Shown piece by piece: positions 1,663 to 25,329 of a stretch of DNA of 64,000 nt. The stretch covers positions 286-64,285 of the forward strand of contig NZ_SUGA01000032.1 in assembly GCF_004963255.1 (NCBI RefSeq), in the 5' to 3' direction. The position numbers and the translations under genes were made by a program. A model generated the notes under the pieces. That model ran no database searches and had not been told where the DNA came from. It saw only the letters and a program-made list of their open reading frames with translations. Every line of letters starts with the position of its first letter. Positions within the stretch are counted from its first letter, which is position 1. The DNA is from Mesorhizobium sp. (GTDB taxonomy: Bacteria; Pseudomonadota; Alphaproteobacteria; Rhizobiales; Rhizobiaceae).

Positions 1663-2277
1663 TCACCCGCCTTTGACGTTTATCCGCGTCCCTGGAGGCA
1701 AACCCCTCGCTTTCGCGATGAGCTGAGCCGTAATGTGCCAATAAACTTCCAGATCTGTCAGTTCCAGATTTGCACTATCGTCTTTGCCGCCCAGGAAGAG
1801 CGGCACCTTGTAGCCGATGCATTGGTCGTAGGCAGGTTCGGCGCCACCATTCCCGCGCCACGTCGCGTAAAAATTCGAGGCCAAGGCGGCATCCTGGTAC
1901 TCATCCAATTCGATTTCATGAAAAGTGCGGATATTGGCCGGAATCTGAAGCGCCTCGCCGGTCCCTGGCTCGAACATCACGACACCAGGCTCCCCATCCT
2001 CGGTTCGTTTGGTGTCAATGGCGAATGTCCTGCCCAACCAATCGTATCCAAAACAGGTAATGCGCCCGGCGAATGCAGGGAAGCCCACGACTATTCTGCT
2101 GCTCCACGCGGCCAAATCCTGGGCACGGACGATGCGGTAAAGGCCGTGATTGAACGACACGCCACTGAAACTGGAAAGCAGCTCATTCAGGCTTGGCACA
2201 CCAGTGTCGATGCTCACAGAATCAGGCTTGCGGCCTGCGTCCGGAGAAAAGCTTTGTCGAAACTTTGGAAACATCAC
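1663..2277 (-). CDS. Tdi1-like (DUF1851) nuclease immunity protein
   Basis: FGYDWLGRTFA and CIGYKVPLFLGGKDDSANLELTDLEVYW motifs; start overlaps the toxin stop (2274-2277). Confidence 0.8.
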   Translation of the reverse strand: MMFPKFRQSFSPDAGRKPDSVSIDTGVPSLNELLSSFSGVSFNHGLYRIVRAQDLAAWSSRIVVGFPAFAGRITCFGYDWLGRTFAIDTKRTEDGEPGVVMFEPGTGEALQIPANIRTFHEIELDEYQDAALASNFYATWRGNGGAEPAYDQCIGYKVPLFLGGKDDSANLELTDLEVYWHITAQLIAKARGLPPGTRINVKGG

Positions 2278-4955
2278 CGATCTCCGATCGTTACCTTGCC
2301 AATTCTCGTCCCGTGAGGCAGATGCTTTATCCGATGATATATCTGGGGACCCAAGCTACGGTTCACGCTTGAATCCAGCGGAGCCATGTTATGCGTCGCC
2401 TCCGCACCTCCCAATTGCAAATCGTGTACATGATCCACGTCGTGGCCGATAGGCACTTCATTGCCTTCTGCTTTGTACCTGGCACTGGCCGACGTCGGAG
2501 CACGAACCGACGGAGTGACTATCTTCTCAACCGCGTTTAGAGCCGCGACCTTTAGATCTGCCGCAAGTCGTTGTGCCGCTGTCCAATGCGGCATGTAAAA
2601 CAGATGTAAGTCGGGACGATCGGAGCCGTTGGTTGCGCCTTCAGAACCAATCGAGGCCTCGCCCGCGTCCCGTGGGATGGCGGAATTCTCGTTCGTTCTA
2701 GGATCGGCCAGATAGGGCGATGCCCCGTCTATTTTAACATCCGTGCCGAAAGACGACTTTGCATCGGCGGGCCGGTCGGCAATTCTCGCCACCACCCGCC
2801 GACCAATCGCGCCGATCCCCTCGGCGAGCGCATTTGCGCCAGTGCCCAGGATCGCTCCAGCGCCCATTTCGCGCACGATGTCCCGGCCGTTGAGCGCAGC
2901 ATCGACGCCGCCGAACACGGCCCCGTCGGCAGCCGCGGTGGTGCTTCTCGCCAGGAAGCCGGGGAAACCTTCAAGGGTTTCAGCTCCCAGCCTGCCCGTG
3001 AAGGTAAGGCCGGCTTTCTGAAAGCCTTGGCCGGTGAGGAAAGCGCCGAGCAGGTTTGCGCCTATGGCAGCCGAGCCGGCACGATCCTCGGCGTCTTCGG
3101 TTTCGGCTTGTTCGGCTGCCCGCAGTTCGGCGTAGCTCTTGTCCGAGAAGATCGCATTCAAGCCGGCGGCGATCGTGTCCGCCTGACCGAAAGTCGCGCC
3201 GTTGGCCATGAGCCTGACAGTGTCGTTCGCCGCCACAAATGGCTTTTGCCACCATGAGCCGGCATCGAACCGCACGCGCGCCGGATGCGCAGCCATCTCG
3301 ATCAGATTTGCCTGCAGCGCTTTTCCCTGGGCTTCCAACTCCGCGGGAGTGATCTTTGGATCGTCCGACGCCTTTTGGCGCAGGCGTGCCAAAGCGGACT
3401 GGAAAACCTGTCCGGCGAAGGCGAAGCGCGTCTCCGGGTCACGCAGAGCCTTGAGTTTGTCACTCAGCTCGATGATGCGCGGCTGCAGCGGCACGCTGTC
3501 ATCGACATATCTTGCGCCAAGGTCGTCCGAGAACTCCTGCGGGACAGCCAAAACCGTGCTGAAACCCAACCGCAGCTGGGCAGCTCTCGCCCACACAACG
3601 GCCGCTTGTAATTCCTCCGGCGTTTTGACCTTGCTCCAGTCTGGAGCATCGCCGCGAAACACCCCACTGGCGTACGCGACTGGATCGGCGGCGCGGGCGG
3701 CCATGATCAACTGAGCGGCGCCGGCCTTGACTTCGTAGCGTTTGCGCGCTTCCAGCGAGCCGCCGGGTCCAGGCCTGCAGTGTAGGAGCTCGGCACTGAT
3801 CGCCTGGTTCGACGCCGCATGCATGTCGGAGTAGGCTTTGCCGATGCCGGTGTTGACCCGGAATAGTTTGAATCGTTCTGGGCCCAGGTCGGCGCCGTAG
3901 ACCTGGACGAAGTCCTGAGCGGTTGGTTCTTCCTCAGGATATTTGCCGGTGGCCGCGATGACGGACGGCGCGCTCTGCTCGGCAAGCATGACCCGCGCAT
4001 TCGCGCCGATCATCTGGACCGCGGTGGCGTTGTTGGCCTGAGTTTTCAGCGCGGCAATGTCGCCGGGTTTCAGATAGGTGATGGCATCGAGAGGTATGGC
4101 TGTGTCGCTGTCCGGCGACGGGCGTTCGCCGAACGCTTGCGCCACCATCTCGTCCGGCGTTTTTTGGCCGGTTGCCGCAGCTTTTTCATCCCGAGCCACA
4201 GCACCAAGCTGCGCCCTCACCGTCTCGCCCATGCCATCGCTCGCCACCGGGCCGGCGCTGAGCAGCTCGGCGGCGCGGCGCGGGTCCAGCGCGATCAGCG
4301 CTTGCAGGCGCTCTTTCGCCGTACGGGCGAGCCAGTCGGCTTCGGCCAGCGCCTTGGCTCGCGGGTCAAGGTCCATCTTGGCGATGAGATCGAGGCCGGC
4401 CTGGCGGGAGGCGTCGAAGGCGGTGGTGTCGTTCGGGTCGCTCTGCGCGATGTTGCTGAGCACGGCGGTGTGAACCTCCGCCGCCTGATCCTGCTCATAT
4501 TGCTTGCGCCGCTGATTTTGCTGCGCCGCCATGCGCCGACCGCCTACGGCGCGAAGCGCCTCCTTGCGCGCGGCAAGACCGGCGCGCAGCTCGGGCGGCA
4601 GCTGTTTCAGGAAATTGCCGAACAGCGCGTCGAACACGCCGGTCTTCACAACCTGGCCGGTGTACGGATCGACCTGGCCATACATGGCATCGTGCAGGCC
4701 GGCGCCGTCGGCGGGCGCGTTGGCCACCGCATCGGCCTCGGCCTGGGCGAGCTCGCCGTTCAGCCGGCGCGCGGCGATCTCGGTGTCGAAGGCCTCTTGC
4801 TGCGCCTTGCGCTGCTCGTAGCGCTCGGCGGCGGCTTGCCACCGGTCGCCGAACTGCTGCATCGCCTCGCCGACCGGCGAGGAGTCCGGATATTGCACCG
4901 CATTGCCGGTATCGAGCCGGCGCTCGCCGACGAACAGGGGGATGATGTGGACCAT
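2274..4955 (-). CDS. Polymorphic toxin 1: carrier D1 + D2 + Gly/Ala-rich hydrophobic segment + HNH-like nuclease tip (893 aa)
   Basis: Start MVHIIPLF at 4955 with AGGAAA RBS matches the paralog starting at 14565. C-terminus DVDHVHDLQLGG...NMAPLDSSVNRSLG is a beta-beta-alpha-metal nuclease-like motif. Followed directly by a Tdi1-like gene. Confidence 0.8.
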   Translation of the reverse strand: MVHIIPLFVGERRLDTGNAVQYPDSSPVGEAMQQFGDRWQAAAERYEQRKAQQEAFDTEIAARRLNGELAQAEADAVANAPADGAGLHDAMYGQVDPYTGQVVKTGVFDALFGNFLKQLPPELRAGLAARKEALRAVGGRRMAAQQNQRRKQYEQDQAAEVHTAVLSNIAQSDPNDTTAFDASRQAGLDLIAKMDLDPRAKALAEADWLARTAKERLQALIALDPRRAAELLSAGPVASDGMGETVRAQLGAVARDEKAAATGQKTPDEMVAQAFGERPSPDSDTAIPLDAITYLKPGDIAALKTQANNATAVQMIGANARVMLAEQSAPSVIAATGKYPEEEPTAQDFVQVYGADLGPERFKLFRVNTGIGKAYSDMHAASNQAISAELLHCRPGPGGSLEARKRYEVKAGAAQLIMAARAADPVAYASGVFRGDAPDWSKVKTPEELQAAVVWARAAQLRLGFSTVLAVPQEFSDDLGARYVDDSVPLQPRIIELSDKLKALRDPETRFAFAGQVFQSALARLRQKASDDPKITPAELEAQGKALQANLIEMAAHPARVRFDAGSWWQKPFVAANDTVRLMANGATFGQADTIAAGLNAIFSDKSYAELRAAEQAETEDAEDRAGSAAIGANLLGAFLTGQGFQKAGLTFTGRLGAETLEGFPGFLARSTTAAADGAVFGGVDAALNGRDIVREMGAGAILGTGANALAEGIGAIGRRVVARIADRPADAKSSFGTDVKIDGASPYLADPRTNENSAIPRDAGEASIGSEGATNGSDRPDLHLFYMPHWTAAQRLAADLKVAALNAVEKIVTPSVRAPTSASARYKAEGNEVPIGHDVDHVHDLQLGGAEATHNMAPLDSSVNRSLGPQIYHRIKHLPHGTRIGKVTIGDR

Positions 4956-5099
4956 TGGGCTGTTTCCTGGCCGGCGGTTTTGGGGGATGCGCGCAGCGGC
5001 GGGCCGCCAGAGGGTGGCGGCCAGTTCGGCGGTGCGGATGGTGAAGGTTCGGCGGGGGGCGCGGATGGCGAAAGGAGTGCGGCGAGAGCGCCTGCGTCC

Positions 5100-5316
5100 C
5101 CTTCTCCCCTTGTGGGAGAAGGTGGCCGCGAAGCGGCCGGATGAGGGGTGCTCCAGCTTGGCGGCCACTCATCCCCTTGTGAGGCGGGAGCCAAGTTTGG
5201 CGACGCCTCGTTTCTTCCAGCACCCCTCATCCGTCTCGGCGCTGGCGCGCCGATCCACCGCCCGGGGGCGAGCCACGGGCCTCGCCCCGTCCTTCAGACC
5301 CCACAGGGGGAGAAGG
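5100..5316. repeat. REP/RIME-like palindromic intergenic repeat (mosaic copy)
   Basis: Arms cttctccccttgtgggagaaggtggccgcgaagcggccggatgagggg and cccctcatccgtctcggcgc match the copies at 28531 and 51442. Confidence 0.8.
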
Positions 5317-5323: not shown

Positions 5324-5647
5324 TTATCTCTCCTCGGCGCGCGCCGCTTTTTCCAGCGCCGCGAGGTCGGCGTCTTCCAGCGTCAGGAACCCCATGATGT
5401 GCTGCACGACTTCGGCGCGGGCATTGCTCAGCGCGCTGTGCAGCTCGAAGCCGTCGGGCGTCTTCGTTCGGGCCAGCCAGTCGCCGTAGGAGGGGCGGCG
5501 GTAGTAGCCTGTCGTGGCGGTGAGGTCGGCCAGCACAAGCTCGCCATCCTCGCCGGAAAAGACGCGGCGATAGGCCTTGGTCAGCGCCTCGCGCGCGGCG
5601 AGCGGGCCGCCGGCGTCGGAGGGACGGGCGAAGCGTTTGCGGCTCAT
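5324..5647 (-). CDS. Bbp19-like phage protein
   Basis: AYRRVFSGEDGELVLADL...ARAEVVQHIMGFL pattern; coupled to the portal stop, the usual position in BPP-1-like podophages. Confidence 0.65.
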   Translation of the reverse strand: MSRKRFARPSDAGGPLAAREALTKAYRRVFSGEDGELVLADLTATTGYYRRPSYGDWLARTKTPDGFELHSALSNARAEVVQHIMGFLTLEDADLAALEKAARAEER

Positions 5648-7482
5648 GCGGCACCATTGGCGGCGCCGCCCACGGGGCCGCCCTGGGAGTCAGGCACGGC
5701 GCCCTGCCCGCCGGGCATCGCGCCTTGCGTCGCGCCGGCCGAACCGGCAGCGCCGCCGCCTGCCCCGCCTTGGGCGCCCTGCATCATCGCCTGAAGGCTG
5801 TCGAGCAGGCCGCTGTCTCGCGCCTGCACGGCGGCCGGCACCGCGTCCTTGGCCACCTTGCCGGCGGTGGCGATCGCCGCCATGCCGGCCTGCGCCTGCT
5901 GTGCCTGGGCGCGCGCGCCGCGCATCCCTTCCACCTCGTCCTTGCGCCGGAAAATGCGCTGCGGGCTGCGGCCGGCGCTCTGCACGACGCGGATCGCCTC
6001 GTCGCCGTCGATATTGTCCATGATGCCGGGATCGAACTGCGCCATCTGCATGGCGGTGGTCACCACCTGGATGGTGTCGCGGGCCTCGGCCGAGCGGCGC
6101 AGCACGTCGAGCGGGCCGGTGAAGGTCGGCCGCACCGCCTTGCCGGCGAGGCTTTCCGGCGGGCGGAAGCGGCTGTCCTGGTCGTAGAGGCCTTTGTCCT
6201 CGAGGATCGACAGCTCGCGATCGAGATTGGCGGCAAAGCCGGCCTGGATGATCGAGCCGGAGGGACCGAGCAGCGCGCCCTTCTCCTCCTGGCGGATCAG
6301 CGCCTCGGTCGCGGTCATCTGCGGGTTCTGCACCAGCGTCTGGAAAAGGTTGACGAACATCATGTCGCGGATCTCCTCCGCCCGGCTCGCCGCATAGTCG
6401 AAGGCATAGCTCGGGTTCTGGCCGGTGGCGATCGGCTGGATCAGCGGCCGGCCATTGTCGTCGATCAGGCCAGGATAATTCTCGCCGGGATTGAGCACCG
6501 GCACATAATCGAGCCTGGCCTTGGAGGCCCTCGGCGGATCGGTGATCTGCTGCAGCGCGCGCAAGCCGGAGCGGCGCACGGCGTTCTCCTCGCGCACCGT
6601 GGTCAGCGCCTCGATGGCCGGCGAGATGCCGTAGGCGTCGCCCTCGTAGCGGCGCCAGTTGAAGGTCGAGACCGGGAAGGTGCGGAAGCCGGACTCGCGC
6701 ACGATCTCCTCCTCGTCCTCAATGACGTGGTAAGAGGCGAAGGCCTGGTCGAGATACTGGTAGAAACCGCCCTTGCGGTACATGCGGCGCTCGTCGCGCG
6801 GCTGCACGCATTGGATCAGCGAGATCTTCTCCTCGCATTTGGCCGGGTCGTCGACCAGCGCCTTGATGCGCGCCGGCAGCTTTTCATAGCCGAGCAATTG
6901 CGCCGCCTGGCGCGCCGTGCGCTCGTAGCGGCGGTGGAAAATGTCGACCTGGCCCCAGCGGTTGCGCGACAGATAGCCCTCGACCACGGGGATCGAGGCG
7001 TAGCGGATCAGCGTGCCGCCGAACCCTTCCTCGGCATAGAGATAGGCCGGGCCGTAGCGGACGACGTTGCGCAGACAGGCCTGCGTCGCCGGCACGAAGT
7101 TGGAGTTGGCGGAATAGCGCAGCGCGAACAGGAAATCGCGCAAGGCCTCGGCCCATTCCTTCTCCTCGTCGGTTTCCTCGTCGTTCATCTCGGCCGTGGT
7201 CAGCCCATGCCATTTTTCGGACTGCGGGATGATCAGGCTTTCCAGACCAGCCGCAAGACGGTTGGCGGCGCTGTTGATGGTGTTGGCGTAGACGCGCGAA
7301 CCGCGGCGCTCCTGCCGCTCGGCCTGGCTGTCCGAGCGGCTGGTGCGGCGGCCCGACCAGATGTCGGGCGCATCCGGATCGCAGAACTCCGCCACCGCCT
7401 CCCAGACGGGCTCGTAAGTGGCGCGTTCGGTCTCGAGTTCGGCCTGTCGCGACAGGATATCGCGGGCGCGGGAGTCGGTCAT
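5644..7482 (-). CDS. Phage portal (head-to-tail connector, T7/BPP-1-like)
   Basis: 612 aa intact ORF with W...GYGISPAIEAL, MTATEALIRQEEKGALLGP and FTGPL patterns of head-to-tail connectors; Gly/Ala/Gln-rich tail; host-like GC. Confidence 0.85.
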   Translation of the reverse strand: MTDSRARDILSRQAELETERATYEPVWEAVAEFCDPDAPDIWSGRRTSRSDSQAERQERRGSRVYANTINSAANRLAAGLESLIIPQSEKWHGLTTAEMNDEETDEEKEWAEALRDFLFALRYSANSNFVPATQACLRNVVRYGPAYLYAEEGFGGTLIRYASIPVVEGYLSRNRWGQVDIFHRRYERTARQAAQLLGYEKLPARIKALVDDPAKCEEKISLIQCVQPRDERRMYRKGGFYQYLDQAFASYHVIEDEEEIVRESGFRTFPVSTFNWRRYEGDAYGISPAIEALTTVREENAVRRSGLRALQQITDPPRASKARLDYVPVLNPGENYPGLIDDNGRPLIQPIATGQNPSYAFDYAASRAEEIRDMMFVNLFQTLVQNPQMTATEALIRQEEKGALLGPSGSIIQAGFAANLDRELSILEDKGLYDQDSRFRPPESLAGKAVRPTFTGPLDVLRRSAEARDTIQVVTTAMQMAQFDPGIMDNIDGDEAIRVVQSAGRSPQRIFRRKDEVEGMRGARAQAQQAQAGMAAIATAGKVAKDAVPAAVQARDSGLLDSLQAMMQGAQGGAGGGAAGSAGATQGAMPGGQGAVPDSQGGPVGGAANGAA

Positions 7483-7655
7483 GTTGTGCCTTTCACGAGG
7501 GCCATGGGACACTGGTGGATGCATATCGGTCGCGTGCACCGCAAAAGGTTCTTGTGCGACGCAACAATCAATGCGTAGATGGGTTTGGGTAACGGCGGTG
7601 GGGTCACGATGGCCGGAGAGCGGATCTGAGACCCGAGACGACCCACTTCGACGCC

Positions 7656-13389: not shown

Positions 13390-14565
13390 CTACCAATTGC
13401 CGAATGACATGCCGCTTTCAAACCGCGCCCTTCCAACAGCCGCTTGCACGTCGTCGTAAGCCCTTTGCGCTTCATCTCGGCCAGAAATCTCCGCCGCGCT
13501 CAACGGATGGAGCGCCAAATCGCCGGCAATCTTAATCCGGAAAGCCCTGAGCGCCAGTCGAGCGTATTTGGATGCGTCCCTGCGCTCCTCGTCGGTCTTC
13601 AAGGCTGGATCCGTGGCGTAATCCTCATTGTCGAGATATGACTTCAATGATGCTGCAAGTTTCCTATCCGCTAAAATTGTATCGCCCGGCGTTTTCGCGT
13701 CATGGTAGTCCGCGTCATGCTGTTTGTAAAACCCGTTCTGAATATCAAAGGGCGGCACGTCAAAACCGCCACCCCATGTCCCGCCGGTCCAGCCACGACC
13801 GCCGTAGTTGCCATAGGTTGGCATATTTCGGTTGATCCTATCGGACAGGCTTAAAGGCTGGTCATCGCGGGTCACCCCTGCGGCGCCCAGCATTTCCAAC
13901 GCGCGCTTGGGATCCCGCGCGATCAGCGCCTCGATCCGCGTCGTCGCCGCGCGATCGCGCCAAGCGGCTTCGGCCTGCAGCCGGCTTTCAGGATCGAGGT
14001 TCATCTTGCCGATGAGGTCGATGCCGGCCTGACGGGCGGCCTCGAAGGCGGCGTGGTCGTCGGGGTCGCTCTTCGCGATGCTGTCGAGCTCTTCGGCCTG
14101 GGCCGCCGCGAGATGGTCCTGCTCATACTGGGCGCGACGCTGCAGCTGCTGCATCGCCATGCGCACCGAGCCTGCCTCCCGCAGGGCCGGCTTGCGGCTG
14201 GCGAGGCCGGCGCGCAGTTCGGGCGGCGCCTGCTTCAGGAAATTGTCGAACAGCGTGTCGAACCGGCCTTCGAGCAAGACGCGCCCGCTATGCGGATCGA
14301 CCTCGCCATACGTGGCGTGGTGCAGGCCCTCGCCGTCGGCCGGCGCGTTGGCCGCGACATCGGCCTCTGCGCTCGCGATCTCGCCATCCAGCCTGTGCGC
14401 CGCGATCTCGGTGTCGAAGGCCTGCTGCCGCGCCATGCGCCGTTCGTAGTGAGCGGCAACCTCCTGCCAGTAGGGATCGAGCGGGCCGGCCGGCGCAGCG
14501 CCGGGCGCCGCATCGCGGGGATCGGGGCGGCGCTGATCGGTGAAGAGCGGAATGATGTGGACCAT
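13390..14565 (-). CDS. Polymorphic toxin 2: carrier D1 + phospholipase A2-like tip (391 aa)
   Basis: N-terminal ~230 aa collinear with toxin 1; tip has YGNYGGRGWTGG (Ca-loop-like) and HDADY (catalytic HD-like); GC drops at the tip. Confidence 0.75.
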   Translation of the reverse strand: MVHIIPLFTDQRRPDPRDAAPGAAPAGPLDPYWQEVAAHYERRMARQQAFDTEIAAHRLDGEIASAEADVAANAPADGEGLHHATYGEVDPHSGRVLLEGRFDTLFDNFLKQAPPELRAGLASRKPALREAGSVRMAMQQLQRRAQYEQDHLAAAQAEELDSIAKSDPDDHAAFEAARQAGIDLIGKMNLDPESRLQAEAAWRDRAATTRIEALIARDPKRALEMLGAAGVTRDDQPLSLSDRINRNMPTYGNYGGRGWTGGTWGGGFDVPPFDIQNGFYKQHDADYHDAKTPGDTILADRKLAASLKSYLDNEDYATDPALKTDEERRDASKYARLALRAFRIKIAGDLALHPLSAAEISGRDEAQRAYDDVQAAVGRARFESGMSFGNW

Positions 14566-14823
14566 GGGGTGCTTCCAGGCGCGCGGAGGCGCCGCCGGCG
14601 GCATGGCCAGCGCGCGCCGCGCCGGCTGCCGCTACGGGGCTGTCGGATCGGGGATTTCAGGGAGGCGGGAAGGCCGGCGTTGCGGAATAAAGGCGCCGGC
14701 GGCGCAAGCTTCAAACTACGGTGACAGTGCGTGATTTTCCGCTCGATCGAACGGAAACGTTGCGGACTTCAACAAGTGGAATCGCGTTCAGAAAATGAAT
14801 GCGTCCTCACCGCAATTCCGATG

Positions 14824-15252
14824 CTATTCCTCATCGTAGGGTTCGACTATCGCAACGAAAATGCCCAACGAATCAAGCAGATCAAAAGCGCGTTCTGAAA
14901 TGACGAGGCGGAAGGGCACTGCGATCCCGAAGTCGTCCTGACCCGCCTTTCCATGCACTTTCAACCAAACGAAACGCGGCAGCACCACGCCGGGTTGATC
15001 TTCCTGAAATTCTTCCGAGGTCGTCACCTCGGCGTCGGCAAACGTTGCGCCTGAAAAGCCCATCTTCTCCAACGCGCGCTGGGCTTCTTCAGTAACAAGG
15101 AAACAGGGAAACGTCGCAACAATCACGTCCCCGAACCATGCGTTCACCTCGTAGTGGAGCTTGGTTACGATCGGTGGATGAACGCTCGAGTCGAGAACCG
15201 TGCCTTTGCCAACCCCGCCAGCCGGGTGCGGCCGTATTTTAAAGTATTGCAT
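14824..15252 (-). CDS. Candidate immunity protein, paralog 3 of a tandem trio
   Basis: Shares DSSVHPPIV..LHY, FPCFLVTE, FVWLKV.G.AG.DDFG and ISER motifs with the other two copies. Confidence 0.65.
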   Translation of the reverse strand: MQYFKIRPHPAGGVGKGTVLDSSVHPPIVTKLHYEVNAWFGDVIVATFPCFLVTEEAQRALEKMGFSGATFADAEVTTSEEFQEDQPGVVLPRFVWLKVHGKAGQDDFGIAVPFRLVISERAFDLLDSLGIFVAIVEPYDEE

Positions 15253-15285
15253 CAGAGGAAGACCGATCAACCTGCAAGCTGAACC

Positions 15286-15717
15286 TCAGAAAGGTTCGAT
15301 TAAAGCATGGGAGATGCCCAATGGCCTCAGGGCATCGAGCACACGCTCGGAGACAACATGCCGGTGGTCCTCGGCTAGCCCGAAATCGTCGTGGCCCGCC
15401 CTCCCATCCACTTTCAGCCAAACGAATGGCGGCAACTCCACGTCCGGCTGCATCTCCTCGAACAATTCGGACGTGGTTACTTTGACCTTGTCGGAGGTCG
15501 CTCCCGAAAAGCCAGCCGTAAGAAATTTCGCTTTTAGGTATTCAGTGACGAGACAGCACGGGAACGACGCAACCATCACATCATCCAGCCACCCGTCGAA
15601 TTCATAGTGCAGACGTGTCACGATAGGAGGATGGACGCTTGTGTCCATAATGGCATCATCGCCAAGCCCGCCCGAGACTTCCGGTTCCAAATAGAAATAT
15701 TTCACTGGCCCTCCCAT
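15286..15717 (-). CDS. Candidate immunity protein, paralog 2 of a tandem trio
   Basis: Same motifs; likely GTG start overlaps the stop of an upstream gene remnant (GTGA). Confidence 0.65.
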   Translation of the reverse strand: MGGPVKYFYLEPEVSGGLGDDAIMDTSVHPPIVTRLHYEFDGWLDDVMVASFPCCLVTEYLKAKFLTAGFSGATSDKVKVTTSELFEEMQPDVELPPFVWLKVDGRAGHDDFGLAEDHRHVVSERVLDALRPLGISHALIEPF

Positions 15718-15909
15718 TCCGGAGCGAAATCACCGACGTCCGAAATCGCCTCGTCAACGGCTCCACACCTCAGTGGTGCCGCAGCATCCTATGCAATCTA
15801 TAATTGCAAGCCAGCCCCCCCCTGTTTAGGCGCCTACGGTCGTGGGGGGCGCGGGAACTCCTCAAAGCCGCGCGATCTTGTAGCCATCCTCACATTTGAA
15901 ACGCCCAAC

Positions 15910-16338
15910 CTACCGATCATCGTAAGGCTCGACTATCGCGAACGGAATGCCCAGCGATTCAAGCAGATCAAGAACGCGTTCCGAGATGATGAGGTGGAAG
16001 GGTACCGCGATCCCGAAGTCGTCTTGACCCGCTCTCCCATTCACTTTCAACCAAACGAAATGTGGCAGGTCCAGGCCGGGTTGATCTTCTTGACATTCTT
16101 CCGAGGTTGTCACCTCGGCGTCTGCGAACGTCGCGCCTGAAAAGCCCATCTTCTGCAGCGCGCGCTGGGTCTCTTCAGTGACGAGGAAGCAAGGGAACGT
16201 CGTAACAATCACATCCCCGAACCAGCCCTCTACCACATAGTGTAGCTTGCTCACGATTGGCGGATGGACACTCGAATCGAAAACTGTGCCTTTGCCGACC
16301 CCACCAGCCACGTTCGGCCATATTTTAAAAAATCGCAT
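15910..16338 (-). CDS. Candidate immunity protein, paralog 1 of a tandem trio
   Basis: Highly similar to 14824-15252 at both DNA and protein level. Confidence 0.65.
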   Translation of the reverse strand: MRFFKIWPNVAGGVGKGTVFDSSVHPPIVSKLHYVVEGWFGDVIVTTFPCFLVTEETQRALQKMGFSGATFADAEVTTSEECQEDQPGLDLPHFVWLKVNGRAGQDDFGIAVPFHLIISERVLDLLESLGIPFAIVEPYDDR

Positions 16339-16352
16339 CAGAGAAAGACCGA

Positions 16353-16680
16353 TCAACCGGCGAAGTTGTTGTCGACGAACATCTCAGCAAATTGCTGAGG
16401 CGTGAGCGTCACCTTGTTGTCGTGGGCGATTTTGAGATTCTTCCTCCACATATCGCGGATTGCATCCGGCATCGTGTCGGGCATGTGGAGAGCCTTGGCG
16501 ATAGCATCTTCCCATCGTCCATTGCCGCCATAGATGGCCTGCAGCTTGGGCGCCATGGCGTTCAGCGTTGCGGCGGAATCTTCGGTCCAAGGCTCTGCTG
16601 CATAAATTGTGTCGTCCTCGTCAAAATCTGACAACCGTCCACCGTCCAACGATATCCAACAGCTTTGTTATTTTTGCCAC
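16353..16680 (-). pseudogene. Deletion chimera of the 11882-12167 and 11558-11872 homologs
   Basis: LSDFDEDDTIYAAEPWTEDSAA is fused in frame to LNAMAPKLQAIYGG...NNFAG; a 7-bp tandem duplication (ccgtcca x2, ~16635-16648) frameshifts the 5' end. Confidence 0.7.
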
Positions 16681-16809: not shown

Positions 16810-17343
16810 ATGAAAGCACTTGTTTTTGCACTTGGCCTTTTAGCAGCGTCATCGCCCTTTGCGATGGCAGAGGAGCCGATCAAATGGATCGTTTCCACGA
16901 CTGGCGGAAGCCAGATCGAGATTCCCTCGTTCTTTGCCGACGGGAAGGTCGAACCTCTGTCTTCCTTCTCCGAAGGACTTACGTTTACACCCAAAAATTA
17001 TCCGGATACCCATTTTCGTCAATATGAAGGAAGCGGAACGATAACTCCATTCGGGTATATCGCGCGCATGCTCGTCGACGATACTGAAAACTATGAAGAC
17101 CAAACGAAAGATTATTACGAACGTAACCACCCTGGCGATAAAGTTACTTATACTTCCGATAATGCGTCCATCGGCGCGGTTTCCGGTACGCGCGCATACG
17201 GTGCTCTCATCTACTATGGCATGTGTCGGAAGCACGCCACCGATATCATAACCTGTTTCGATATGACCTGGAGCAAGAAAGATAAAGCGATATTCGAACC
17301 GATCGCTCAGCGTATCGCTCGGTCGTTCGGTAAAGATAGATGA
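16810..17343 (+). CDS. Periplasmic protein with signal peptide, candidate amidase immunity
   Basis: MKALVFALGLLAASSPFAMA signal peptide; C-terminal Cys pair; convergent with the amidase tip. Confidence 0.6.
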   Translation: MKALVFALGLLAASSPFAMAEEPIKWIVSTTGGSQIEIPSFFADGKVEPLSSFSEGLTFTPKNYPDTHFRQYEGSGTITPFGYIARMLVDDTENYEDQTKDYYERNHPGDKVTYTSDNASIGAVSGTRAYGALIYYGMCRKHATDIITCFDMTWSKKDKAIFEPIAQRIARSFGKDR

Positions 17344-17395: not shown

Positions 17396-17815
17396 CTACC
17401 TTTCAATAATGTAGTAATAAGCGCCACTCTCAAGGCCCTGACCTGCACCCTCCCAGGGCCGGAAGGTTATGTTTGCGTTCCGACGCTTCCATTGATCCAA
17501 AATGAAGATCCCCGATTCATTTTGACCGAGGTAAATTCCGGTGTGACTAAATCCGCTTACCCCCCCAGATTGGCCCTTTGGTCCATAATGAATTTTGCCC
17601 TTTCCGTCACCCCAATCACCGTTGAACGTGGCGATGGGAGTCCCGGGTAAAATCTTACCATTTCCTTGTACTCTCTCTCCCTTTTTCCATGTTGAGGCAG
17701 GAATACCGGCCATACCTCCCACTTCCTTTGTCAACGCGACGCATTGGCCATTGCCGAAACTTTTTCCCAGAATTTTTGTGTAGGATTTAGCCCTCGCCTG
17801 GACGTCTTCCGGCAA
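17396..17815 (-). CDS. Tae/BPSL0067-like NlpC/P60 peptidoglycan amidase domain, out of frame with its upstream carrier
   Basis: GQCVALTK (Cys), PIATF, HTGIYLGQ (His) and ILDQW motifs; frame is open upstream to about 17955. Confidence 0.75.
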   Translation of the reverse strand: MPEDVQARAKSYTKILGKSFGNGQCVALTKEVGGMAGIPASTWKKGERVQGNGKILPGTPIATFNGDWGDGKGKIHYGPKGQSGGVSGFSHTGIYLGQNESGIFILDQWKRRNANITFRPWEGAGQGLESGAYYYIIER

Positions 17816-19185
17816 AACTGAAATATTTGTGGTGCTGTTCCCAAACCATCCTTCAAGAGATTTTTCGACTGCGGTAGCTTTTTGCTGAAATCGATAGAAG
17901 GAGCCTTCGGACTCCCTGGCGGCGGCTTCATCTGTTCTGATGGGACCTCCTTCAAGTCAACCCGCAAATTGGAATTGTCGTCCGCGGATTGGGACGCCGG
18001 GTCAGATGTTCCAGAAGGAACGCCCGGACGCTCTGGCGGCGGATCTATCTGCTCCGGCAGCACCTGCGTCAGTTCAACCGGCGCATCAAAATTGTCATTG
18101 GCAAGCCCGGACGCGGATACCAGGGAACCACTGTCGGCAGCGACCGGAGAGTCACCAGCCGCAAGGGTCTCGGAGGATTGCGCAGGCGCCCGCGTCGAAG
18201 GCGACGCATCCTGGCTCTCAAAGGGTGCCTTTGAGGGCAACCCAAAGCGCTTGTCGAAATCATCCTGCCCAAGCGGGGTTACCTTCTGCGTCTGCCCGCC
18301 AAGCAATCCAGCCTCGGCAAACTGCTGCTTGACCGCCGCCTTGACGACCGGATCCGTCGTTCCGGAAAGCAGGCCGTTCATCCCGGCCCACATGTCTTGC
18401 GGCGGCATTCCGCCGAGCTCTTTCAGCACCGATCGCGGCACGGGCTCAGCGTTCTCGATGCCGAGATAGCGCTGCGTGGCGATGGTGAGGGCCAGCGCGT
18501 TCCGGACCGCGGCGGGGTCGCGCCAGCCCTGGGCCGCCGCGGCGCGCCAGGCCTCGTTCGCCTGCGGAAACGCCTTGACGGCCTCGCCGGCAGGATCGTT
18601 CTGCCTGGCTTCCAGCACGTGTTGGGCGGCAGCGGCGGTTATCCGGTAGCGCGACTGGCCCTCCGGCGAATTCGCCGCGCCGACGGCTGCGTCCAGCAGC
18701 TGGCTGTTTATGTCCCGGGCCGGCATGACACGCATGTCGAAGGCCTGCTTGCCCGTCCCCACGCTCTGGTCGAACTTCGCCAGTTGCCGGCGGCCTTCCT
18801 CGACGCCGAAGACATAGGCGAAGTCCTCGGGCTTGGGCATCACGCCGGCATAGCTGCCGGTGTCCGCAAAAGCCTTCGGGGCGTTCTGAAAGGCCAGAGA
18901 GATATTGGCGCGCGCGCCGACCAGCTGGGAGACATTGGCGGCGCGCGCACGCCGGGCAAGAGCGCCGGCGGAGCCCGGCGTGAGATCGGCAAGCACGGCG
19001 GCGAGCGGCCGATCCTTGTCCGTCAGGGCATCGACCGGCCGGTCCTTCGCCAGCGCCTGTTTCACCCTGTCATAGAGCGGCGCGAGATCGGCGGACTGGT
19101 CGCTGGCGCCGGCATTCTCGCCGGTGCCTTCGGTCTGGTCGTCGGCGCTATCCAGGAGCGTTCCGTCGCCGATCTTACGATCCAT
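17731..19185 (-). CDS. Polymorphic toxin 3 carrier (D2 + Pro-rich linker), frameshifted before the amidase tip
   Basis: LADLTPGSAGAL...GSYAGVMPKPEDFAYVFGVEEG aligns with toxin 1 ITYLKPGDIAAL...GKYPEEEPTAQDFVQVYGADLG. Confidence 0.7.
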   Translation of the reverse strand: MDRKIGDGTLLDSADDQTEGTGENAGASDQSADLAPLYDRVKQALAKDRPVDALTDKDRPLAAVLADLTPGSAGALARRARAANVSQLVGARANISLAFQNAPKAFADTGSYAGVMPKPEDFAYVFGVEEGRRQLAKFDQSVGTGKQAFDMRVMPARDINSQLLDAAVGAANSPEGQSRYRITAAAAQHVLEARQNDPAGEAVKAFPQANEAWRAAAAQGWRDPAAVRNALALTIATQRYLGIENAEPVPRSVLKELGGMPPQDMWAGMNGLLSGTTDPVVKAAVKQQFAEAGLLGGQTQKVTPLGQDDFDKRFGLPSKAPFESQDASPSTRAPAQSSETLAAGDSPVAADSGSLVSASGLANDNFDAPVELTQVLPEQIDPPPERPGVPSGTSDPASQSADDNSNLRVDLKEVPSEQMKPPPGSPKAPSIDFSKKLPQSKNLLKDGLGTAPQIFQFCRKTSRRGLNPTQKFWEKVSAMANASR

Positions 19186-19562: not shown

Positions 19563-19999
19563 CTCACCTGAAAGCTCCCAGCGGATCGCTCTGCCCACCT
19601 GGCGCCGCGCCGCCTTGAACTCCGCCGGATCGACGATCGCCTCGCGCAGCATCATCACGCCGTAGCGCGTCGCGGCCATGAGATCGTCGCGCAGCTTCAC
19701 CACCTGGCCGTTCTTGCGATGGTAGAGGCGGAATTCCTCGAACCAGGCGGCTAAGGTCGAAAACACCTTGAAGCGGCCGGACTGCATGCGGTCGAGCATG
19801 TCCATTAGGCCGGCCTCGACCGAGACGGAGCCGTCGGCGAAACGGGCGTGGCCGGTCAGCATGTTCAGCCCAGGCGCGGCATATTGCTTCGCCAGCGCCA
19901 CGCCGGCGCCTTCCAGCGTCTCGCGCCGGCCGTCGCGCGGCCAGGCGAAGGGCAGCCATTCGCCCCAAGCCTTCAGCGCCACCGCCTGCATAGCGGGCG
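19563..19999 (-). pseudogene. Duplicated 3' fragment of terL with a 1-nt deletion
   Basis: Near-identical direct repeat of 22735-23172 (437 vs 438 bp); no 5' half. Confidence 0.9.
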
Positions 20000-20395
20000 A
20001 CCAATGGTCGAAACAGACAGTCGATCTCCGCCCGATCTCCGGGGCGCAGATTAGCGGCAATGTTGGAGAGGTCCCGCCGGCGTGGCGGGGACGACGCGAA
20101 TGGGCATTCAGAGATATTCAGAATCGCACGGATGTCGAGTCGACGAAGCCGACGATGATGGCACTCAGACTAGTTGGACGGCCCACGGTTGGTGTCGATT
20201 GAAGCTGCAAGGCGGCACGACCTGCAAGGGCCAATCGACGAACAATCGTGTTGCTTGATGCACACCCATACGTCGGCGTCACCATCAGCGTGTGGCAGTA
20301 ACTCAGGCGGATAGGTGATAACTTTCCCCTGGGGAAGACTCATGGTGTCTGCTCCGGTATAGTTCGTATCCCGAATCACCCAAGGAGCTGCCGCT

Positions 20396-20629
20396 ATGGC
20401 ACGGGTTCAATACTTTGTTGTCCTCCACGAAAATGAATGGAAGGTTACTTTGGACGGGAAGCACTATGGCCCGTACGCCACCCAAGCACTCGCGATAAAA
20501 GCAGCCGTCGATGCGGCTCATAGCACTGGAAAGAAGGGCACCGACGCCCAAGTTCTTGTGCAAGGAACGAACAATCAGTTCCGGACTGAGTGGACATATG
20601 GCAATGATCCCTATCCGCCGAAGGGATAG
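20396..20629 (+). CDS. DUF2188 family protein
   Basis: YFVVLHENEWKV...YATQALAIKAAVDAA...RTEWTYGNDPYPPKG pattern; GGAG RBS. Confidence 0.75.
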   Translation: MARVQYFVVLHENEWKVTLDGKHYGPYATQALAIKAAVDAAHSTGKKGTDAQVLVQGTNNQFRTEWTYGNDPYPPKG

Positions 20630-20966
20630 GTTTGGACTGTTTGCCTTCCAAGGCGGCCCAGAAAGCCGCCTTTTTTCGTTTGCCGAAGATCGCGTAGATT
20701 GGGCAGATAGCCACCTGCTGAGCAGCAACTCTCAGTCTGTCATATTGGTTTGCCGCATCACACTTGCGAAGTGAGCGCCAAGAGCCCCGGCGACCAGTGG
20801 CCGGCCTGCGGTCGCCAAGGTGCAGATTGGCGGTGATGTAGGAGAGATTCAATAGGATGCCGGAACAATGGATTTGGCATCACGCACCCATTGTCGAAAA
20901 CCGACACTTTCTGGTTTGGCCACCAACAGCGAGGATCGGCTAGAAACAATCTCAAGAAGCAGACTT

Positions 20967-21713
20967 TTATCTAGCCTTTTCAAACTCCACAAAGGGTTGA
21001 TGGACTTCTGATTGCATAACCTGAAAACCGCTAGGAACCACCGATTCAAATCGGCACAGCAGCCGAAGCTGAATTGGTGCGTCTTGATTGGTTCGAACCA
21101 CCTTGATCCTCGCACTGGCGCAAGACTTCTTGTCGATGAGAAGACGCTTAATGTCCTCGGCATAAAACGTTGGGATGTACCCGACCAAGATCGTGTCATC
21201 TTCGCCACGAAGGGCCACAGCACAAGGGTCCACAGGGTTTTGGACATCCAGCAGAGGCAACAACCTTCCGCCAATCTCCAACTTCTTTGACCAATCCAAG
21301 ACGTCTTTGTGCATATGTCGCATGGCATGGACAAAGAATTCGAGTTCATAGCGGCCGTCCGCGACGGCCGGTTCGGGGTACATCAAAATTGAATCTGTTC
21401 CTGGAATTAATCCAAATTTCGACAACAGCTCGAATTCGTTCCCCATTTCGCGAACGTTGAGCCAATGCGCCATCTTTTCAAAATCCCCCCTGCTCCGAGA
21501 AGGGATTCTGTTTGTAAACAGAGGAATTAATTCTTCAAACCGATATTGAAATTTTGGATCCATACGGAAAAGATCAAAAGGAATTGTTCTTAGATATTTT
21601 ACGCCCTTCGTAAAAACAAAGTAGTATGCGTCTTTCTCTTTAGTCAACCGCCCAATTGTATGCCATTTGCGAGTAGCGTCATCCTGCCACGCCACGAAAA
21701 TACGATTAGACAT
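20967..21713 (-). CDS. HIRAN-domain protein, partner of the HipA-like kinase
   Basis: N-terminal IFVAWQD...WHTIGRL...LFTNRIPSRSR; C-terminal NPVDPCAVAL...VGYIP HIRAN-like motif; overlaps the kinase stop; low GC. Confidence 0.75.
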   Translation of the reverse strand: MSNRIFVAWQDDATRKWHTIGRLTKEKDAYYFVFTKGVKYLRTIPFDLFRMDPKFQYRFEELIPLFTNRIPSRSRGDFEKMAHWLNVREMGNEFELLSKFGLIPGTDSILMYPEPAVADGRYELEFFVHAMRHMHKDVLDWSKKLEIGGRLLPLLDVQNPVDPCAVALRGEDDTILVGYIPTFYAEDIKRLLIDKKSCASARIKVVRTNQDAPIQLRLLCRFESVVPSGFQVMQSEVHQPFVEFEKAR

Positions 21714-22635
21714 TTGTGGCTCCCAAAATCATTGCCTGATTGGCACACAACATACGAATCGCGAAACGGGCTGCCCCTTCGTCAATCCATTCTTCGCCAA
21801 TCTGTCCAAAGACCTTGCTGAACGCCTCCTCAGAAAGCTCGCCGATGCGGGTCGCCCAAAACTGAGTAGCCTCGGGGTACACTTTGACCAATTCGTCGAC
21901 CAACTCACAGAGGTGCAGGGTGCCAGGCGTATTGCTACCGAAGAAGGCGGACTTACCGCGCTCCGCATAAGCCTCAACCGTCGCACGGTGATCTTTGGTA
22001 GTAAGTCTCATTGACCGCTTCTCAGCAGGCTCATTTCTACCGAGGGACGACGCATGATCAAAACTCGGCGCTAGATGAACGGAAATATTTTCCTTTTCGA
22101 CATTTACAACTACGCCCCAGTTCTCATGATGTCTGTCGGTGTTTCCGATCAATGCATCAAATAAAAGGTAGCCTACAAATACCTCCGTGGCCGACAAATT
22201 CTTGAGTTCCTCTTCCCATCCCACCGGCTTTCGAAGTCCTCGAAGCCGTTTTATCAGGTTCAGCACATGGCCGATCTTGTAGTCGATCTGTTGAAACCTT
22301 TTGTTCCCATCGTAACCGTCTACTACTCGCGCAAGCAGCATGTTACCCGGAATGAACTGTGCCGCATCTGGCATGAAACGCTCAGACACAACTCCTTTTA
22401 CGTCACCGATACGAGCGAAATCATACGAAGCGCATGGAATGCCCAGCAGCTTGCAAAGCTCAAAGGACACTTTTTCCGCCCAATTTTCTCCAGTATTGGG
22501 CCGACCTATCTTAAAGAGGTGCGGCCGCCGAACCAACTCGTGGCCCTCGCTGGGAAGCACCCAAGTCTTCTCTTTTGTGCCGAGACTCTCCGGACGCTGA
22601 GAAACGAAGTCGCTGATGTTGTAGACTGGAAACAC
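21706..22635 (-). CDS. HipA-like (CtkA-type) Ser/Thr kinase
   Basis: SLGTKEK, LFK...GENWAEKV, DALIGNTDRHHENWG and LAPSFDHASSL motifs; low GC. Confidence 0.85.
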   Translation of the reverse strand: MFPVYNISDFVSQRPESLGTKEKTWVLPSEGHELVRRPHLFKIGRPNTGENWAEKVSFELCKLLGIPCASYDFARIGDVKGVVSERFMPDAAQFIPGNMLLARVVDGYDGNKRFQQIDYKIGHVLNLIKRLRGLRKPVGWEEELKNLSATEVFVGYLLFDALIGNTDRHHENWGVVVNVEKENISVHLAPSFDHASSLGRNEPAEKRSMRLTTKDHRATVEAYAERGKSAFFGSNTPGTLHLCELVDELVKVYPEATQFWATRIGELSEEAFSKVFGQIGEEWIDEGAARFAIRMLCANQAMILGATNV

Positions 22636-22735
22636 GCGCTAAGCGCCCTAACCTACAGAACAATACGCTGAATCGGCCACCTTGTGTCAACGGTGCATTT
22701 AATGACTGCTGCCATCCTAGTGACGCAGAGTTCGC

Positions 22736-23491
22736 TCACCTGAAAGCTCCCAGCGGGTCGCTTTGCCCCGCCGGACGCCGCGCCGCCTTGAACTCCGCCG
22801 GATCGACCACCGCATCCCTCAGCATCATCACGCCGTAGCGCGTGGCGGCCATCAAATCGTCGCGCAGCTTCACCACCTGGCCGTTCTTGCGATGGTAGAG
22901 GCGGAATTCCTCGAACCAGGCGGCCAAGGTCGAAAACGCCTTGAAGCGGCCGGACTGCATGCGGTCGAGCATGTCCATCAGGCCGGCCTCGACCGAGACG
23001 GAGCCGTCGGCGAAACGGGCGTGGCCGGTCAGCATGTTCAGCCCATGCGCGGCATATTGCTTCGCCAGCGCCACGCCGGCGCCTTCCAGCGTCTCGCGGC
23101 GGCCGTCGCGCGGCCAGGCGAAGGGCAGCCATTCGCCCCAGGCCTTCAGCGCCAGCGCCTGCATGGCGGGCGTCTGCTGGGAGGCGCGGTGCGCCTTGGT
23201 CACATAGACGACATCGGCCTCGGTATCCCAGGCAAGCTCGACCGCGGCGGAAGGATGGTCCCAGCCGAAATCGAGCGCGCCGACCCGCGGCCACCAGCGC
23301 GGCAATTTGAACGGCTCGCAGGCGATCAACTCCTCCGCCACCGGGAAAATGCGGCCCGAGCCCAGCACCGGAATGCCTTTCGCGCGGGCCTCGCGTTCAT
23401 GCTCGGGATAGGCGGCGATGATTTCGGCGCGCTGCTCAGGCGAATAATGCCCGGCATCGTCGATGGTCATGAAGGTGACGTGGCGGGACAT
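22736..23491 (-). CDS. terL: Terminase large subunit, C-terminal nuclease half
   Basis: GALDFGWDHPSA and DDLMAATRY nuclease-domain motifs; own GGAG RBS before MSRHVTF. Confidence 0.85.
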   Translation of the reverse strand: MSRHVTFMTIDDAGHYSPEQRAEIIAAYPEHEREARAKGIPVLGSGRIFPVAEELIACEPFKLPRWWPRVGALDFGWDHPSAAVELAWDTEADVVYVTKAHRASQQTPAMQALALKAWGEWLPFAWPRDGRRETLEGAGVALAKQYAAHGLNMLTGHARFADGSVSVEAGLMDMLDRMQSGRFKAFSTLAAWFEEFRLYHRKNGQVVKLRDDLMAATRYGVMMLRDAVVDPAEFKAARRPAGQSDPLGAFR

Positions 23492-23502
23492 GGCAACTCC
23501 AG

Positions 23503-23670
23503 TTCCTCGCCCCGCGAGAGCGGGGAGAGGTGGCGCGGCGAAGCCGCGACGGAGAGGGGATGGCGCCGGCTTTGACCAGGGACGGGAGGCCATTCGCCAA
23601 GCGCTCTACGAAGGCCCCTTTCCGGCCGCTGCGCGGCCACCTCTCCCCCCGCTTCGCGCGGGGCGAGGAA
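23503..23670. repeat. REP/RIME-like palindromic repeat inside split terL
   Basis: ttcctcgcccc...ggggcgaggaa outer arms with ggggagaggtggcgcggcgaagccgcgacggag internal arm. Confidence 0.75.
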
Positions 23671-23674
23671 AAGG

Positions 23675-24028
23675 TCAGCCCTTGTACCCTTCGTTGACGC
23701 AGTCGTTCTTCCAGGCCCAGTCGAAGTCGGCCTGCGACATGGGCGAGCCGAGGCCCGGTTCGACATAGGGCCCGGCGCCGTCGATGTAGACGATGAAGCG
23801 CGTTTGCTTGGTGAAGATGCCGACCTTGCTTATGACGACGCCGCAGGTCTGTCCGGTCGCGCTGTCGCCGGTGAGATCGACATGGGAGAAGGTTGCCTCC
23901 GGATTATTGACCAGGCCACGCATCCTGGCTTCCGCCGAAGCGATCGCATCGGCGCGCCAGTCGCCGCTGGAGCCGGAGCAGGCCGAGAGCAGCGCGCAGA
24001 GAAAAAGCAGTTCTGGCAGGGGTCGCAT
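23675..24028 (-). CDS. Lipoprotein inserted between the terL halves
   Basis: MRPLPELLFLCALLSAC lipobox; 117 aa; bracketed by two related palindromic repeats. Confidence 0.75.
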   Translation of the reverse strand: MRPLPELLFLCALLSACSGSSGDWRADAIASAEARMRGLVNNPEATFSHVDLTGDSATGQTCGVVISKVGIFTKQTRFIVYIDGAGPYVEPGLGSPMSQADFDWAWKNDCVNEGYKG

Positions 24029-24120
24029 GTCGGCTCCGGATCGGCCGGAAGCTACTCGACCTCCGGTTGCGGCCAAAGCGGCATCGCAAATCATGGTTTC
24101 GGTGTGGTTTCGTGAAGCGC

Positions 24121-24290
24121 TCTTTCCTCGGCCCACGCAAGTGGGGAGAGGTGGCGCGGCGAAGCCGCGACGGAGCGGGGGCAGCGCCGGCTTTTGATGC
24201 AAGAGCGGAAAGCTGCTCGTTAAGCTTGTCGCTCTAGGACATCCCCCTCTCCGGCCGCTGCGCGACCACCCCACCTTGCGGGGGCGAAGA
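24121..24290. repeat. REP/RIME-like palindromic repeat providing the terL-N stop codon
   Basis: Same arm sequence as 23503-23670; the TerL-N ORF ends inside it at 24234. Confidence 0.75.
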
Positions 24291-24968
24291 ACCCAAGTTC
24301 TGAACCGCTTCAGCCGACAAAAACCTCAGCACCACATCGCTCATGCCGAGCAGCGGCGTGAAGGTCACGATGGTTATGCCGTCGGTGGCATTGGTGCGGG
24401 TCAGCCCCTCGGAATAAATGTCCAGCGGCGGCTCCTCGTCGAACCACACGCCGTGCAGCGTCTCGCCCTGCCATTTCTCGCGGCCCTTTTCGTAGCTCTT
24501 GAAGGAGAGCACGCTTTCACCGGCCTGGACGTCGCCACCGCCGCCCCAGCGCACGATGACGCTGTCCAACGCTCCGGGCGTACCGCGGCCCATCACCGTG
24601 CCGGCGATGGCATTGGCCGGGATCATGCCGGTGCCCCATTCGTCCTGCTGCTGCGGCGGGCCGACCAGCACGCGCTGCGGATTGTCGCGCGTGCCTTCGC
24701 CGGTGACGCCGGCGGCCCAGAGCCTGACGGGCTGATCGAACACCTTGCCCGCCCACCAGTCGGGATAGCGGCCGGTGAGGTGCATGGCCCATTCCGCGCC
24801 CCCTGCCCTGGTCTTGCCGAGCTGGTTGCCGGCCATGAACAGGCGCTCGCGGTGGGTCGCGCCCGCCGTGTGAAAGGCGGCCTGCCTTTCGTATGGCGCG
24901 TAGGCGGCGAGAAGATTACGGCGCCGCCTTCGGTCCAATTCCTCGAGCAGCGCCAGATAGGTCTGCAT
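24234..24968 (-). CDS. terL: Terminase large subunit, N-terminal ATPase half
   Basis: Walker A FMAGNQLGKT, Walker B WFDEEPP and TFTPLLG coupling motif. Confidence 0.9.
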   Translation of the reverse strand: MQTYLALLEELDRRRRRNLLAAYAPYERQAAFHTAGATHRERLFMAGNQLGKTRAGGAEWAMHLTGRYPDWWAGKVFDQPVRLWAAGVTGEGTRDNPQRVLVGPPQQQDEWGTGMIPANAIAGTVMGRGTPGALDSVIVRWGGGGDVQAGESVLSFKSYEKGREKWQGETLHGVWFDEEPPLDIYSEGLTRTNATDGITIVTFTPLLGMSDVVLRFLSAEAVQNLGSSPPQGGVVAQRPERGMS

Positions 24969-25329
24969 CGCCGTCGAGGAGCGGCCGAAGGCTCGCCTCG
25001 AGACCACGGATGCGGCTTCGGATCTCCTCATCGCTCAGTTGCTCGAGAGTGGTTTTATCGGCATCGAAACTTTCCGAGCTGGCCGCAAAATCCTTGGGCA
25101 GCAGCGTCAGCACGACCTTGAGATACTGGTCGGGCTTTTCGGCCCTGACCGCCGCGATGACGCCGGCGCCATGAGCGCTGAAATCGGCGCGAAGGGCGGC
25201 GGCGAAGTCATCGACGAGCGTCTTTCGCGGTCGTTTGCGGCAGGCGGCGGCTTGAACCGGTGCGGACCTCGCTCGCTTCGCGCCGGCGGGCTTGCGGCTC
25301 GCGGCCTTGTCGGCGTCAGGCCTGGGCAT
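24916..25329 (-). CDS. Terminase small subunit-like protein
   Basis: ADFSAHGAGVIAAVRAEKPDQYLKVVLTLLPKD and LEQLSDEEIR patterns; overlaps the terL start. Confidence 0.6.
   Translation of the reverse strand: MPRPDADKAASRKPAGAKRARSAPVQAAACRKRPRKTLVDDFAAALRADFSAHGAGVIAAVRAEKPDQYLKVVLTLLPKDFAASSESFDADKTTLEQLSDEEIRSRIRGLEASLRPLLDGDADLSGAARGIGPKAAP

Follow-up and report, generated by a model that had tools for sequence, protein, structure and literature searches.

The carrier-amidase gene at 17396-19185 (minus strand) is probably a prophage-borne polymorphic effector with a Tae2 tip that was recently inactivated in a single lineage, while its candidate immunity gene was retained. It lies on contig NZ_SUGA01000032.1 of Mesorhizobium sp., within a 64,000-nt stretch that was analysed as a whole and is called the window in the following. 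In the mechanism that we propose, the effector would be built from an all-alpha podovirus-like carrier, a linker rich in Pro and a low-GC tip of the Tae2/BPSL0067 type gained by horizontal transfer. When intact (595-736 aa in relatives), such a protein would target the cell wall in the periplasm with its tip, either to poison competitors or as an enzyme, carried in the virion, that cuts the wall; the convergent secreted neighbour would inhibit the tip. A lineage-specific mutation at 17855-17858 (net -1) would then have put the tip out of frame, leaving a recent pseudogene with a product reduced to carrier, linker and 41 nonsense residues.

Two open frames separated by the loss of one base

The carrier frame (ORF A, minus strand) runs from an ATG at 19185, with a GTG at 19245 as alternative start upstream, to a TGA at 17733-17731 and encodes 484 aa. 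Its first ~320 aa form the all-alpha carrier domain 'M' (18226-19185), followed in the same frame by a Pro/Ser-rich linker (17859-18225) with a repeated 'LPEQxDPPPERP'-like motif. The end of this linker, ...KKLPQSKN(L), is still homologous to in-frame orthologs; it is followed by an out-of-frame tail (17731-17856) of 41 aberrant residues (LKDGLGTAPQIFQFCRKTSRRG...) up to the TGA, for which no homolog was found among the relatives compared. The second frame (frame B) is open on the same strand from 17956 to a TAG at 17398-17396, that is for 186 codons from stop to stop, with a TTG at 17815 as first usable start, and holds the amidase tip (17396-17854, 152 codons plus stop). Since codons start at positions with p mod 3 = 1 in frame B and p mod 3 = 0 in ORF A, frame B is the -1 frame relative to the carrier frame. 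ORF coordinates and codon phases thus agree with the original prediction of an intact Tae-like domain in the -1 frame relative to 19185-17731, and the region in which both frames had been described as open (~17730-17955) measures 17731-17956 (75 codons). This dual openness is not special to the window, because the flanks are ~99% identical in in-frame orthologs, where the same off-frame openness is found.

The break was located by DNA alignment with three near-identical orthologous loci at 17855-17858 (minus strand). All three loci read AAAAATCTATCTGAAGG where the window reads AAAAATCTCTTGAAGG, which sets AAAAATCT-CT-TGAAGG in the window against AAAAATCT-ATC-TGAAGG in the orthologs. The lesion consists of a net loss of one base together with a substitution, its site is outside any homopolymer, and it is the sole frame-breaking indel in the 1,790 nt of the gene; the second gap in the alignment is in-frame (3 nt). 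The frame is therefore broken in the -1 direction, as predicted, and it is due to this one-base loss that ORF A lacks the tip and ends in its aberrant residues.

The lesion falls within a tract of ~180 nt at the linker-tip junction (17747-17925) that is 97-99% identical to the M. plurifarium locus L017, and around this tract identity to L017 is 76-79% in the linker and 86-93% in the remaining tip. Such a pattern suggests recent gene conversion or a constrained junction.

All nine distinct relatives with carrier, linker and Tae2 tip (P0001/L017, P0152/L018, L029, L030, P0154, P0158/L023, P0159, P0002 and G075) encode them in one continuous ORF. In the best of them, P0001 from M. plurifarium (595 aa), a single frame is colinear first with ORF A and further on with the tip (...SIDFSKKLPQSKNLSEGWFGNSTTNISVLPEDVQ...). 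The same holds for P0152 from Mesorhizobium sp. LCM 4577 and for P0154, P0158, P0159 and P0002; the open frames extend over 815 aa in the species genome G075 and over 623, 659 and 661 aa in three IMG/VR prophage loci. Nine in-frame sequences, and a junction, ...LS(E/K)xW..., that is kept even where tip identity is as low as 64%, mark the in-frame state as the ancestral one. The 484-aa truncated protein is a singleton cluster from one assembly only, and a search for a second record of the lesion with a gapped pattern matched only the in-frame M. plurifarium sequence among genome contigs and nothing among metagenome contigs. As far as the sequences compared indicate, the frame shift is unique to this genome. 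That all distinct relatives are in frame is the outcome that the original prediction itself had named as a refutation; it speaks against the slippage that was offered there as an option, and leaves the toxin architecture put forward there standing.

Age and nature of the break

Relative to M. plurifarium, the tip shows 26 synonymous and 12 non-synonymous differences (dS 0.31, dN/dS 0.11), against a dN/dS of 0.26 in the carrier domain and 0.55 in the linker, and no stop codon has arisen within the tip frame. The low ratio and the absence of stops mean that the break is young relative to the divergence of the lineages, or artefactual: the tip still shows purifying selection, with a break that is either recent or an assembly error. 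Continued expression of the tip would also fit the low dN/dS, and the substitutions polarised to the window branch (2 synonymous and 3 non-synonymous sites) do not suffice to demonstrate relaxed selection.

The genome is a 159-contig draft and the lesion occurs in a single assembly, in front of a fully intact tip under strong purifying selection and between flanks ~99% identical to in-frame orthologs. All this would also be expected if the strain carried an intact carrier-Tae2 gene of ~595 aa and the missing base were a draft artefact. We nevertheless regard this explanation as unlikely, given a substitution plus deletion in non-repetitive sequence, a genome completeness of 100% and unbroken long ORFs in the rest of the window. 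A complex change outside any homopolymer is unlike a typical base-calling error, and together with the otherwise normal ORFs of the window it leads us to favour a real mutation. The idea of a recent inactivation, as originally predicted, thus agrees with the tip's low dN/dS and with the presence of just one frame-breaking indel, in so far as the lesion is the real mutation that we infer.

Slippage at the overlap

Two A-rich sites in the overlap, C-AAA-AAG and G-AAA-AAT, had been proposed as possible slip sites. Both are present on the minus strand, at 17884-17878 and 17866-17860, as A5 runs that are not canonical X-XXY-YYZ heptamers. The first can be ruled out as the shift site, as frame A stays homologous to the orthologs for eight codons beyond it. 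Run length likewise rules out transcriptional slippage, for which A5 is too short.

Programmed or leaky -1 ribosomal frameshifting would yield a low level of full-length toxin, with a slip either at G-AAA-AAT, which precedes the lesion by three bases, or at T-TTG-GGA (17839-17845, minus strand), the only canonical X-XXY-YYZ heptamer of frame A in the overlap. We consider it very unlikely. A slip at G-AAA-AAT would give ...QSKN-SLEGWFGN..., equal in length to ...QSKNLSEGWFGN... of the orthologs, and the tip ORF is intact; however, both A5 runs are base-for-base the same in in-frame orthologs and hence no adaptations to a shift, and in none of the nine distinct relatives (0/9) but in the window alone is the frame shifted. 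The one canonical heptamer that could count in favour is at chance level, with ~0.3 expected in 75 codons (75/256), and no stimulatory RNA structure was apparent in the 80 nt past each candidate site, where folds were no better than shuffles (z = -0.16, +1.40 and -0.25; -0.16 downstream of T-TTG-GGA). The chance is thus slight that a leaky slip at G-AAA-AAT restores the junction at ortholog length and provides a trickle of active carrier-amidase, with the immunity gene kept; if true, the toxin would be dosage-attenuated and not dead. Nothing indicates that low-level leakiness at this site is selected. The slippage at A runs suggested at the outset has therefore given way to a break at 17855-17858. 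The frameshift itself is ordinary, a single lesion or an error in a gene found intact everywhere else, and does not belong on a list of candidates for recoding.

The Tae2-type amidase tip

The tip opens with the conserved EGWFGNSTTNISVLPEDVQ and reaches 57.1 bits (E 1.9e-15) against NCBIfam NF033857, 'BPSL0067 family', which has a curated cut-off of 27 bits. It also matches the solved Tae2 (type 6 secretion amidase effector 2, PDB 6WIN; E 4.1e-7), with the Cys of GQCVAL (codon 17743-17741) and the His of SHTGIYLG (codon 17545-17543) aligned with the Cys and His of 6WIN and invariant in seven relatives. According to PMC10469887, which cites Russell 2012 on this point, Tae2 cuts the DD cross-link between mDAP and D-Ala in peptidoglycan. 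Pfam and PHROGs models gave no match to the tip, and its AF2 model, built on a shallow alignment of 7 sequences (mean pLDDT 47.4), was too poor for a fold search for the papain-like (NlpC/P60-type) fold expected of the family.

An exhaustive search returned 391 relatives of the tip domain. Of the best 150, many are larger proteins (200-800 aa) in which the match falls at the C-terminus, and others are stand-alone proteins of 113-150 aa. In view of this C-terminal placement in many larger relatives, the domain is a general polymorphic-toxin tip and not one restricted to T6SS; the T6SS-type effector domain of the original prediction thus stands as a Tae2-type amidase, with the term 'T6SS-type' to be qualified. 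At ~0.49, the GC content of the tip and of the tip's convergent neighbour is well below the ~0.70 of the carrier. The Tae2 tip is present in 3 of 202 Mesorhizobium species genomes, a distribution that fits a mobile cassette.

The stand-alone relatives share the domain limits of the tip at 113-150 aa, the 6WIN chain has 140 aa and the genome encodes TssC on another contig, so the tip might now be made as a free 139-aa Tae2-like protein from TTG 17815, available to the strain's own T6SS. We hold this to be extremely improbable: the TTG is the sole usable start, is preceded by ...CACAAATATTTCAGTT without a Shine-Dalgarno motif and also lies inside the ORFs of the in-frame orthologs, the exact ORF is missing from the protein collection, and the carrier-tip gene is unlinked to the T6SS (TssC on contig C71, the window on C85). 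Recent inactivation of a carrier-borne tip remains our preferred reading.

In P0002 and P0159, an extra module of ~170 aa with a WRNNNPGNIEYG motif stands between linker and Tae2 tip (residues ~370-540); it has no Pfam match.

The carrier as a module of a phage protein family

The phage-type carrier predicted beneath the Tae domain was supported by PHROG profile matches to a ~900-aa phage protein family. ORF A matches phrog_24166 only at profile positions ~237-525 and phrog_37988 only at 289-487, both being phage families of ~770-920 profile positions. In the same window, ORF 13390-14604 covers positions 1-240 of the two profiles, and ORF 2274-5168 (964 aa) spans the whole carrier-family profile. 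To judge by these matches, the carrier of ORF A corresponds to 'M', the middle module in a ~900-aa family of putative podovirus-like virion proteins, and this module here has a gene of its own. The M domain is shared by 15 homologs; a common MER/MDR... N-terminus marks the start of all 14 homologs compared, and a separate N-module gene of ~255 aa abuts the M gene in other loci; the stand-alone M gene is therefore no accident of this genome.

Separate N-module genes (~252-319 aa) were observed in L023 (4725-5492), L024 (5253-6011), L026 (5216-6001) and L030 (5701-6660), in each case with a stop that abuts or overlaps the start of the M+tip gene. As the relative frames vary between loci, this arrangement looks like translational coupling and not like a conserved shift. 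In the copies that follow the portal, N and M are fused in a single protein of ~900 aa, and the metagenome protein P0153 (812 aa) apparently has two tandem M domains before a SleB-type Hydrolase_2 tip.

The AF2 model of the carrier is an all-alpha fold with a mean pLDDT of 76.5 and values >90 for residues ~90-290. No counterpart in the PDB was found by sequence profile search, and Foldseek gave only noise there (E >= 0.97). In BFVD, the model matched podovirus proteins of 700-960 aa (E 1e-4 to 7e-3, TM 0.36-0.50), some of which are annotated as structural, tail lysozyme or GH108-bearing proteins. A tblastn search of 50,697 phage records with the 964-aa paralog recovered only short tip-level matches and none to the carrier, and neither ORF A nor this paralog has a Pfam match, so that the MuF domains PF04233 and PF06152 are not detectable in either.

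Interchangeable tips and candidate immunity genes

The same M domain bears four kinds of tip, namely Tae2, glucosaminidase (PF01832), SleB-type Hydrolase_2 (PF07486) and WHH/colicin-DNase. Convergent to the Tae2 tip of the window lies an intact gene on the plus strand (16810-17343) for a secreted 177-aa protein with the signal peptide MKALVFALGLLAASSPFAMA, which is 75-77% identical to the neighbours in L017 and L018 and 53% identical to that in L023, and for which neither Pfam nor the PDB gave a match. It falls in the 'type A' branch of a paralog family with two branches, and a type A gene adjoins the Tae2 tip in every locus examined (the window, L017, L018 and L023). In L026, where the tip is a glucosaminidase, the type B paralog stands in place of type A, and the Tae2 loci retain a type B copy further along. 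The WHH tip is followed by a 93-aa ORF on the same strand. By its association with the Tae2 tip, the type A protein is a candidate immunity protein and the likely inhibitor of the tip. The pattern of tips and neighbours fits toxin-immunity pairs as well as a virion wall-cutter with a resident inhibitor, and we infer a toxin or wall-cutting role of the tip and an immunity role of the neighbour from this pattern.

Two further genes of the window were noted. The gene after the 964-aa carrier protein (1663-2277) matches the T6SS immunity protein Tdi1 (PF08906, 36.7 bits) and is, going by this match, another T6SS-type module reused in the prophage. In ORF 13390-14604, the N module is fused to a low-GC tip with YGNYGGRGW...HDADY motifs resembling phospholipase A2, and the M. 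plurifarium ortholog (390 aa) lies directly upstream of the carrier-Tae2 gene.

A long-resident prophage remnant

In the window, L017, L018, L024, L026 and L030, the carrier-tip gene lies between terL fragments and a T7-type portal gene. In the window this portal (5644-7539, PF12236) is followed by the 964-aa ORF with one small ORF between, the ortholog of which matches Phage_Bbp19 in L017. The segment order of the window is scrambled relative to the M. plurifarium locus, with duplicated and truncated copies: the carrier-Tae2 gene follows a duplicated terL 3' fragment, the gene for the N module with the phospholipase-like tip is normally upstream and is here downstream, followed by a 135-nt remnant of the M start, and the secreted-protein gene occurs in duplicated copies, one of them truncated. 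The element occupies the same chromosomal site, beside doxX. Given this common site and the split terminase in every locus examined, we regard it as a long-resident prophage remnant, and a frameshift in one cargo gene of such a remnant is unremarkable.

The ATPase and nuclease halves of terL lie at 22736-25031 in the window, 3778-5756 in L017, 1352-5085 in L026 and 719-2889 in L030. The gene is split in all the related loci examined as well as in the window, its two halves lying 0.4-2.3 kb apart, so that the split is, on this comparison, old and shared and not strain-specific. The duplicated terL 3' fragment (19571-20108) is 91% identical to terL of L017 and lies downstream of a low-GC insert of 2.6 kb (20108-22743) with HipA_C-like and HIRAN-domain genes. 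Joined to the fragment is a 116-nt piece homologous to the start of a 189-aa 'internal virion protein' gene, and a tandem duplication junction may have left this footprint. Three tandem paralogs of 143-148 aa (14824-16356; phrog_32682, E 6e-67) are inserted so as to separate the Tae2 cassette from the gene for the N module with the phospholipase-like tip; the orthologous M. plurifarium locus lacks them.

Comparison with known systems

The tip resembles Tae2 in passing the family cut-off, in its aligned catalytic Cys and His and in the expected mDAP-D-Ala target, and the locus is comparable to Tae2/Tai2 in having a periplasmic neighbour as candidate inhibitor. However, the known Tae2 is a free protein of ~140 aa encoded in a T6SS cluster, whereas here the domain is the C-terminal tip of a ~600-aa prophage protein, one of a set that spans 554-736 aa, is out of frame and lies in a genome with its T6SS on another contig. 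In contrast to Tai2, the neighbour has no detectable similarity to any known family.

A second comparison concerns the large virion-type proteins with a peptidoglycan-cleaving domain among the podovirus internal virion or ejection proteins (T7 gp16). By its predicted fold, the carrier is similar to podovirus structural proteins whose annotations include lysozyme or GH108 domains. There is also a precedent, in T4 gp5-Spackle, for a resident phage that encodes a periplasmic inhibitor. Unlike in these systems, some members of the carrier family have DNase tips and small downstream ORFs, which suits a toxin better; moreover, the carrier is a putative virion protein, and the element has a split terminase at each locus examined.

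The MuF polymorphic toxins of temperate phages (Jamet et al., 2017; PMC5576092) share with the present system the prophage encoding within a terminase-portal module, a conserved N-terminal phage domain with swappable C-terminal toxin domains, and adjacent candidate immunity genes. In contrast to MuF, the carrier is a different all-alpha module in which the MuF domain is undetectable, and the tips are mostly wall hydrolases. In addition, the carrier family occurs both as fused N and M after the portal and as separate N and M genes, each of which is able to bear a tip.

Taken at this strength, the Tae2-type wall amidase, best known as a free T6SS effector, is found here as an interchangeable tip on a non-MuF phage carrier. 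The carrier-tip system belongs to a prophage remnant that is conserved across Mesorhizobium and also encodes two matching secreted paralogs, both of them candidate inhibitors. Carrier-tip protein and secreted neighbour would constitute a testable toxin-immunity pair, or a pair of wall-cutter and exclusion protein, and the system would be a second example, besides MuF, of phage packaging-module proteins that serve as toxin carriers.
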